From the NCBI RefSeq assembly GCF_003334335.1, contig NZ_QOWQ01000068.1: a stretch of 8,688 bases of DNA. One strand, given 5' to 3'. Of the stretch, positions 769 through 1,329 are shown piece after piece (the stretch's first letter is position 1; every line of letters begins with the position of its first letter). Source of the DNA: Escherichia coli (GTDB lineage: Bacteria; Pseudomonadota; Gammaproteobacteria; Enterobacterales; Enterobacteriaceae). A program made the position numbers and the translations under genes. The notes under the pieces were generated by a model. It saw only the letters and a list, made by a program, of their open reading frames with translations, was not told where the DNA came from and did no database searches.

Positions 769-1329
769 ATGAAGAAGATAATATTATTAGCCATGATTAT
801 TGGTTCTTTAACAGGTTGCGCTAGTGTGCCACCATTGAATTTTTCAACACCTAACGTGGGAGTTAGCCAGAAAAAAATAGATGCTGAAATTAAGTCATTA
901 ACGGTATCACTTGCTCGTCCAGATGAGCAGAAAGGGGATATCACTGCTGGTATGGAGGCTATAACTCCAATTTGGCGTGAATCTTTGCAGGAAGCACTCG
1001 ACCGAATGACTATTTTTCGTGATAGTTCACCAAATACGGTTAGCTTAAATGTTAAAGTGTTGGCTCTTGACGTTCCTGCTTTTGGTGTTTCAATGACAAC
1101 TAAAGCAATTGCAAGGTATGAAATAATCAACCGTGCGAATGGTGATATTATATATACGCAGGATATTGAGTCTACCGGTACTGTTCCAGCCAGTTACGCA
1201 TTCTACGGTATTGTTCGAGCACGCGAATCTGTTAATCGCGCGGTGCAAAACAACATAACGCAGTTCTTGCAAGCATTAGAAAGTGTTGATCTTTCTCGTC
1301 CAATGTTTCCTGTTAGGGTAGCTAAATGA
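769..1329 (+). CDS. Lipoprotein of unknown family (186 aa)
   Basis: N-terminal signal peptide MKKIILLAMIIGSLTG followed by Cys17 (lipobox LTGC); Ala at +2 rather than Asp suggests outer-membrane sorting. Good RBS. Stop TGA (1327-1329) overlaps the next gene's ATG (1326-1328). AT-rich codon usage. Confidence 0.8.
   Translation: MKKIILLAMIIGSLTGCASVPPLNFSTPNVGVSQKKIDAEIKSLTVSLARPDEQKGDITAGMEAITPIWRESLQEALDRMTIFRDSSPNTVSLNVKVLALDVPAFGVSMTTKAIARYEIINRANGDIIYTQDIESTGTVPASYAFYGIVRARESVNRAVQNNITQFLQALESVDLSRPMFPVRVAK

Follow-up and report, generated by a model that had tools for sequence, protein, structure and literature searches.

The window analysed here, a stretch of 8,688 nucleotides of Escherichia coli DNA, is in its entirety the nin-to-lysis region of a lambdoid prophage, and it matches Escherichia phage PhiR30_1 (PV340558.1), as well as many E. 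coli chromosomes, at 100% identity. Near its 5' end lie two overlapping genes, referred to below as gene A and gene B, and the features needed to follow the argument are these:

up to about 283: end of ren, as annotated in PhiR30_1
284-1781, no strand assigned: low-GC insert (moron) of about 1.5 kb between ren and the region upstream of ninB, comprising a 68-aa ORF (minus strand), gene A, and gene B
321-527, minus strand: the 68-aa ORF, taken from the ORF list and hypothetical in PhiR30_1 and RefSeq
712-739, plus strand: sigma-70-like promoter (GTGATA, 16-nt spacer, TATAAT; 10/12 in a consensus scan) 30 nt 5' of the start of gene A, a candidate only, as such sites are no more numerous in the region than the shuffled expectation
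758-761, plus strand: Shine-Dalgarno sequence AAGG of gene A, read from the sequence, 7 nt 5' of the ATG at 769
769-1329, plus strand: gene A, 186-aa lipoprotein (PHROG 12521; WP_000720581.1)
769-819, plus strand: signal peptide and lipobox LTGC of gene A, read from the sequence, with Cys17 at 817-819
1297-1311, plus strand: R-P-M-F-P tail of A (residues 177-181), candidate docking motif for B
1326-1329, plus strand: ATGA start/stop overlap of A and B, read from the sequence (translational coupling)
1326-1778, plus strand: gene B, 150-aa SlyB-family lipoprotein (PHROG 13877, E 1.4e-98; WP_000825400.1)
1371-1373, plus strand: Cys16 of the B lipobox LVGC, read from the sequence
1488-1634, plus strand: glycine-zipper two-helix membrane hairpin of B (residues ~55-103; Rick_17kDa_Anti PF05433, E 3e-4; Gly-zipper_Omp, E 6e-3)

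The gene order 3' of gene B is ninB/ybcN, ninE, ybcO, rusA, ylcG, Q, a porin gene on the minus strand, S, R, and Rz/Rz1, and the window ends, past Rz/Rz1, with bor (minus strand) followed by ybcV and ybcW. The porin gene (4031-5173, minus strand; phrog_410), which sits between Q and the lysis genes, is of the OmpC/NmpC type and intact; the phage record names it OmpD, and strain JNQH498 has it as a pseudogene ("internal stop"). Five products in the window are directed to the outer membrane, namely A, B, the porin, Rz1 (6630-6812), and bor (6903-7196, minus strand). A ybcV-like ORF (7487-8020, minus strand), located between bor and the terminase genes but on the opposite strand, matches phrog_413, whose label of "head protein" looks doubtful for this ORF. 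The predicted product of the 68-aa ORF within the insert is a small membrane protein of two helices; the ORF has no PHROG match and was not found beside the A-B cassette in other genera when the neighborhoods of the loci were compared. Antisense ORFs of 142 aa (702-1130, minus strand, opposite A; seen in 50 loci) and 95 aa (1397-1684, minus strand, opposite B; seen in 31 loci) turn up wherever A and B do; they are shadow ORFs of these genes and not genes themselves.

The segment from about 284 to 1781 has a GC content of 32-46%, as against about 51% in its flanks, and other lambdoid phages align only from about position 1782 of the window onward (query positions 1283-1401 of 500-1900). The insert is missing from otherwise collinear phages and deviant in base composition, as is characteristic of a moron. 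Of the 2883 E. coli genomes with a match to the flanks, only 274 carry the full stretch, and among complete E. coli genomes it is present in 274 of 5426 (~5%). The interval from the end of B to ninB (upstream of 1911) showed no terminator-like site.

The sequence-only reading had proposed that positions 769 to 1329 encode a lipoprotein of 186 aa with a signal peptide and a lipobox, and this is borne out by the ATG start codon at 769 with its AAGG ribosome-binding site, by the LTGC lipobox, and by the pattern of selection on the gene. The N-terminus of A, MKKIILLAMIIGSLTG followed by the lipidated Cys, displays a KK n-region, a hydrophobic core, and the lipobox L-T-G-C with Cys17; it agrees with the test pattern [LVI][ASTVI][GAS]C and carries no Asp at +2. 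A would be processed as a lipoprotein by Sec, Lgt, and LspA. The residue at +2 after the lipid-bearing Cys is Ala both in A (C-A-S) and in B (C-A-Q). According to the Lol rule of E. coli, Asp at +2 is the signal for retention in the inner membrane, so that Ala at this position indicates probable sorting of the gene A product to the outer membrane. At least 90% of 109 aligned A members keep Cys17, and the lipobox pattern is matched in 80 of 101 A representatives. Homologues of A number 512 at E<=1e-3 (90% clusters), with 460 representatives at 50% identity. When A and B are compared with their Klebsiella, Edaphovirga, and viral orthologues, pS is 0.72-0.87, with 0.77-0.87 for A (saturated), and pN 0.10-0.24, and both genes are under strong purifying selection. 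The many homologues, the conservation of Cys17, and a pN far below the saturated pS go beyond chance, and A is therefore confirmed as a real, strongly conserved lipoprotein gene. Right behind the lipidated Cys, at residues 21-31 (window ~829-861), A carries a near-invariant PPLNF(S)xPxVG motif, of which G31 and P28 are conserved in the partnered clade only; because this motif leaves almost no flexible tether, the A domain should sit tight against the membrane.

The claim that A belongs to no recognizable family holds at the level of sequence. Pfam searches with A and 109 members returned the lipid-attachment motif only, NCBIfam gave nothing near any cut-off for A, PADLOC (PADLOC-DB 2.0) matched neither A nor B to any family at E<=1, and a PDB sequence-profile search with A yielded only noise driven by the signal peptide, including CsgG at E 0.18. 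The only family match of A is phrog_12521, which, like the phrog_13877 of B, is annotated as "unknown function". Databases nevertheless attach two names to the A family, "UDP-N-acetylglucosamine acyltransferase" in NCBI, UniProt, AFDB, and the phage record, and "YajG family lipoprotein" in recent PGAP annotation. LpxA-type acyltransferases are cytoplasmic enzymes built as a left-handed beta-helix of hexapeptide repeats, whereas A has no Hexapep or acyltransferase domain in Pfam and is modelled as a small alpha/beta lipoprotein of ~170 residues with no hexapeptide repeats; the acyltransferase label is a propagated misannotation. With regard to YajG, the NCBIfam model NF008637 gives A 11.4 bits against a cut-off of 242, and this over the signal peptide only, and PF03923 is present in each of the 120 YajG proteins listed but in no listed A-family protein. 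An hhalign comparison of A with YajG at first returned a probability of 87.6%, but this was an artefact because signal peptides had been aligned, and with mature domains only, the probability drops to 0.5% (E 0.11). A is thus, as judged from these comparisons, not a demonstrable member of the YajG family. Membership of the PqiC (ABC_trans_aux) family was also considered and rejected: PF03886 occurs neither in A nor in the families of the 109 members, hhalign of A against mature PqiC gives a probability of 0.2%, and no genes of the MCE/PqiAB type are linked to A, a SlyB-like gene being the sole conserved neighbor across 65 loci. It is highly improbable, then, that the database labels are correct and that A is either a UDP-N-acetylglucosamine acyltransferase or a PF03923-containing YajG protein; the names do stand in NCBI, UniProt, and PGAP records and the initial YajG alignment seemed to agree with one of them, but the lack of an acyltransferase domain and of PF03923 and the mature-domain and NF008637 results already refute both at the sequence level.

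At the level of fold, the picture is different, and the mature domain of A is no orphan. The AlphaFold2 model of A, built from a 109-sequence alignment, has a pLDDT of 95 and a pTM of 0.88 and shows the order beta-alpha-beta-beta-beta-alpha with the two helices on one face of an antiparallel sheet, the arrangement that characterizes LptE-like proteins. The search with a predicted structure that the sequence-only reading had advised gave as its top match 2iqi (XCC0632, DUF330/ABC_trans_aux, PqiC family; 13.2, with 141 residues aligned), ahead of PelC (10.3), HpaA-like proteins (10.2), LptE (9.9), PqiC (9.5), CsgG (9.1), TraT (7.0), and LpoB (6.2), and a search of the BFVD library of viral structures gave no meaningful relative. 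The mature A domain is therefore not a new fold but a sequence-divergent branch of the LptE-like lipoprotein superfamily. Almost all members of this superfamily are anchored in the outer membrane as components of oligomeric envelope machines. No match of A to a characterized family of unrelated function emerged, and the kinship found is one of fold only, to the superfamily that includes LptE, PqiC, PelC, and CsgG.

Gene B, on the other hand, is readily placed. Its product is 33% identical to E. coli SlyB over the full length (BLASTP, residues 1-149), and phmmer aligns residues 2-149 with residues 3-155 of SlyB in PDB entry 7ojf at E 1.3e-14. The layout of B follows that of SlyB from end to end, with the lipobox, an N-terminal strand region, the glycine-zipper hairpin, and a small C-terminal beta domain, and B is a genuine full-length homologue (paralogue) of SlyB. 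SlyB has been reported to form 11-mer rings around outer-membrane proteins and lipids, and SlyB and YfgH have been described as outer-membrane stabilizers (bioRxiv 10.64898/2025.12.22.696046). Since B matches SlyB over its full length, it would be expected to form membrane-embedded oligomeric rings as well.

The tight coupling of A to a SlyB-like gene, noted in the sequence-only reading, is thus upheld by the ATGA overlap and by the end-to-end alignment of B with SlyB, and it extends well beyond this prophage. A scan for A limited to one genome per species gave 65 loci in Gamma-, Beta-, and Alphaproteobacteria and in one Desulfobulbaceae MAG; a B orthologue lies directly 3' of A in 45 of these, with the -4 overlap in most of the 45. 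Among 45 A loci in IMG/VR, 32 are paired with B and 13 are solo, and scanning in the other direction, from a B profile, gave 31 viral loci, in all of which (31/31) A stands directly upstream. None of the 20 solo genome loci has a glycine-zipper ORF within 4 kb, HMM search included, and no SlyB-like gene was found within 4-5 kb of A in the 13 solo viral loci. Across the 65 loci, there is no third gene conserved around the pair. In Luteimonas abyssi (L005, 5570-6025), B, which has a GTG start, was missed by the gene caller and a spurious antisense ORF of 93 aa was called instead; counts of co-occurrence based on called genes would therefore underestimate pairing. The suggestion that A is a partner of the SlyB-like gene is thus supported, and neither of the results that the sequence-only reading had named as counting against it, a characterized family of unrelated function or a complete lack of co-occurrence with SlyB-like genes, came about. 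As a refinement, the pairing is a property of one large A clade, the divergent or secondarily reduced members of A being solo; 20 genome and 13 viral loci have A without B. Because such loci exist, A can function alone in some lineages. Within the sensitivity of the scans, this SlyB clade never travels without A, while A can be alone.

The presence of the partner is also reflected in the C-terminus of A. The [KR]PMFP tail occurs in 51 of 53 distinct partnered A proteins, the two exceptions reading RPIFS and RPLFS, and is absent from all 23 distinct solo ones (0/23); in the model of A, this segment is an exposed coil with the lowest pLDDT of the chain, about 72-91. A neighbor-joining tree places 10 solo A proteins inside the paired clade at no fewer than four points: a Photorhabdus/Budvicia/Xenorhabdus group, one protein in Massilia, one in a betaproteobacterial MAG, and one from a viral contig, among Xanthomonadaceae sequences. 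All nested solo proteins have lost the PMFP motif or carry it in degraded form. There have apparently been at least four independent losses of B, each accompanied by loss of the motif, in a tree that is rough and has short internal branches. Repeated co-loss of PMFP and B is what would be expected if the tail contacts B, and on the strength of this covariation, the PMFP tail is most likely the point at which A would dock on B.

With regard to mobility, the cassette is found also in Klebsiella, Stenotrophomonas, Xanthomonas, and Bordetella, and its contexts are islands in which toxin-antitoxin genes, transposases, umuDC, and T6SS effectors occur. Its insertion site varies, lying between tape-measure and minor-tail genes in one locus (L095) and beside a cI-like repressor in another (L100). 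In the collections, it is carried by a single isolated phage genome and by no plasmid. The A-B pair is a mobile two-gene cassette of prophages and genomic islands in many Proteobacteria. Solo A is present in Xenorhabdus-type prophages (L052 and L108; ~3986-4549) between the tail-chaperone and tape-measure genes, and at a further locus (L119, 5001-6149), a solo A homologue in a prophage tail module is followed by a second, unrelated lipoprotein gene of 167 aa. The tail-module position of solo A is a typical site of exclusion genes of the cor/llp type.

No phenotype of the A-B family is reported in the literature searched, and searches on the family, its accessions, its phage, SlyB together with prophage, and glycine-zipper superinfection exclusion found no study; a paper on phiv142-3 orf6/orf10 proved to be unrelated to the A-B family. 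The reading that we favor, and to which we give about even credence, is that A and B make up one two-lipoprotein module of the outer membrane, which in this prophage is a self-contained, mobile lysogenic-conversion moron. We infer that the pair is expressed in the lysogen, that A and B come into physical contact in an oligomeric state, and that this has a phenotype. Co-translated with A, B would oligomerize through its glycine-zipper hairpins into membrane-embedded rings, and A and B would form one assembly at the outer membrane's inner leaflet, in which A would be a periplasm-facing adaptor or cap docked on the B assembly via its [KR]PMFP tail. A may in this way direct or limit where the SlyB-type ring forms; the "specificity factor" of the sequence-only reading is likewise a putative role. 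The cassette would alter the outer membrane of the host, either stabilizing the envelope or masking surface structures from incoming phage or complement. An AlphaFold prediction of an A-(GGGGS)6-B fusion as a single chain, from a 24-row paired alignment, gave a pTM of 0.49 with the zipper helices at a pLDDT <50 and is uninformative, neither favoring a complex nor speaking against one, as may be expected when a ring-forming membrane protein is modelled as a monomer.

Envelope stabilization and receptor masking are two competing readings, inseparable on these data, and each has its own points for and against. B being a full-length homologue of SlyB, and SlyB and YfgH forming rings around outer-membrane proteins and lipids, it is possible, although we hold this only tentatively, that the cassette protects against envelope stress by adding a further SlyB-type nanodomain system, in which A is the co-factor, stabilizing the outer membrane when LPS packing is disturbed (by EDTA, cationic peptides, or bile) and giving the lysogen a fitness benefit. 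This would be in agreement with the place of DUF330/PqiC, the nearest solved fold to A, in lipid-transport machinery, with the binding of LPS by LptE, and with the observation that most carriers are chromosomal loci of free-living Proteobacteria that are not obviously phage. E. coli, however, already has slyB and yfgH in its core genome, the cassette belongs to the accessory genome with a patchy distribution (5% of complete E. coli genomes), and comparison of the neighborhoods linked no stress regulator to it. Masking, for its part, has precedents in Cor and Llp, which bring about superinfection exclusion at FhuA, and an A-B assembly might similarly sit under or around an outer-membrane receptor to block the adsorption or DNA entry of competing phages or, in an alternative form, block mating-pair stabilization or complement as TraT does. 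We consider surface or superinfection exclusion rather unlikely, given that no PADLOC model covers the pair, that similarity to Cor, Llp, and TraT does not rise beyond noise, that most A homologues lie outside recognizable prophages, and that no receptor can be named. A more specific version is that A and B are a "split TraT-like" or receptor-specific SlyB-type assembly, in which B would supply a membrane-embedded helical ring and A an LptE-fold periplasmic ring or cap docked via PMFP, the ring being targeted to a particular outer-membrane protein so that prophages and islands could hide or lock a surface receptor; we would place little reliance on this version. If true, this would be surface or superinfection exclusion by a mechanistically new class of system, and A would be the first factor known to be dedicated to targeting a SlyB-type nanodomain protein.

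It could also be argued that A is independent of B, their adjacency merely reflecting co-transfer, and that A is a PqiC/LptE-like adaptor of a host transport machine (MCE/Pqi, Lpt, or Pel-like). The match of the A fold to PqiC/DUF330, LptE, and PelC and the existence of solo A lineages would suit such a role, but MCE, Lpt, or Pel genes are linked to A in 0 of 65 loci, the 4-nt overlap persists in alpha-, beta-, and gammaproteobacterial loci as well as in one Desulfobulbaceae MAG, viral contigs never show B of this clade without A, and the PMFP tail tracks the presence of B, all of which makes independence of A improbable. The two-lipoprotein module thus remains our preferred reading, and its interest lies in that SlyB-type glycine-zipper lipoproteins have recently been seen as organizers of outer-membrane nanodomains and are treated as stand-alone proteins in the sources cited. 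The cassette presents a widespread SlyB clade that is inherited only with an LptE-fold lipoprotein, whose tail motif vanishes when the SlyB partner is lost, and it offers a testable handle on how ring formation is directed or controlled and on what temperate phages gain from it. Two propagated misannotations, "UDP-GlcNAc acyltransferase" and "YajG family", are also corrected.

Among known systems, SlyB of E. coli and Salmonella (PDB 7ojf/7ojg), a PhoPQ-regulated glycine-zipper lipoprotein, is the one with which B aligns end to end. Canonical slyB, however, is a solitary core gene whose K-12 locus has no adjacent lipoprotein gene on the same strand, whereas B is accessory, mobile, and, at all loci examined, translationally coupled to an upstream LptE-fold lipoprotein. 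The yfgH-yfgI pair of K-12 was considered as an analogue of A-B and rejected, YfgI being a charged coiled-coil protein (DUF5384) and B barely similar to YfgH. The nearest solved fold to A is that of the ABC_trans_aux/DUF330 proteins (PqiC, XCC0632; PDB 2iqi, 8q2c), but the linkage to pqiAB/MCE genes is missing for A. LptE, PelC, and CsgG are LptE-like outer-membrane lipoproteins that plug or ring machines; A is 8-13% identical to them, stands in no LptD, PelB, or curli context, and carries an N-terminal PPLNF and a C-terminal PMFP motif that are specific to its own family. YajG, like A, is a lipoprotein of ~190 aa, and its alpha/beta topology is probably related, the order of strands and helix being kept in a weak alignment, but its gene adjoins ampG and has no SlyB-like partner. 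TraT of the F plasmid (PDB 9e2v), a decamer that mediates surface exclusion and serum resistance, combines an LptE-like core and two membrane helices in one chain, with an extra beta-hairpin. Neither A nor B belongs to the TraT family (PF05818), and the Pfam TraT model gives B an E of 1.2, which is no significant sequence similarity, so that the likeness of A plus B to TraT would be an architectural parallel with no sequence link. Together, the fold of A and the family of B are known, and what is new is a widespread, uncharacterized, phage-borne lipoprotein family in which a SlyB clade has its obligate upstream partner.
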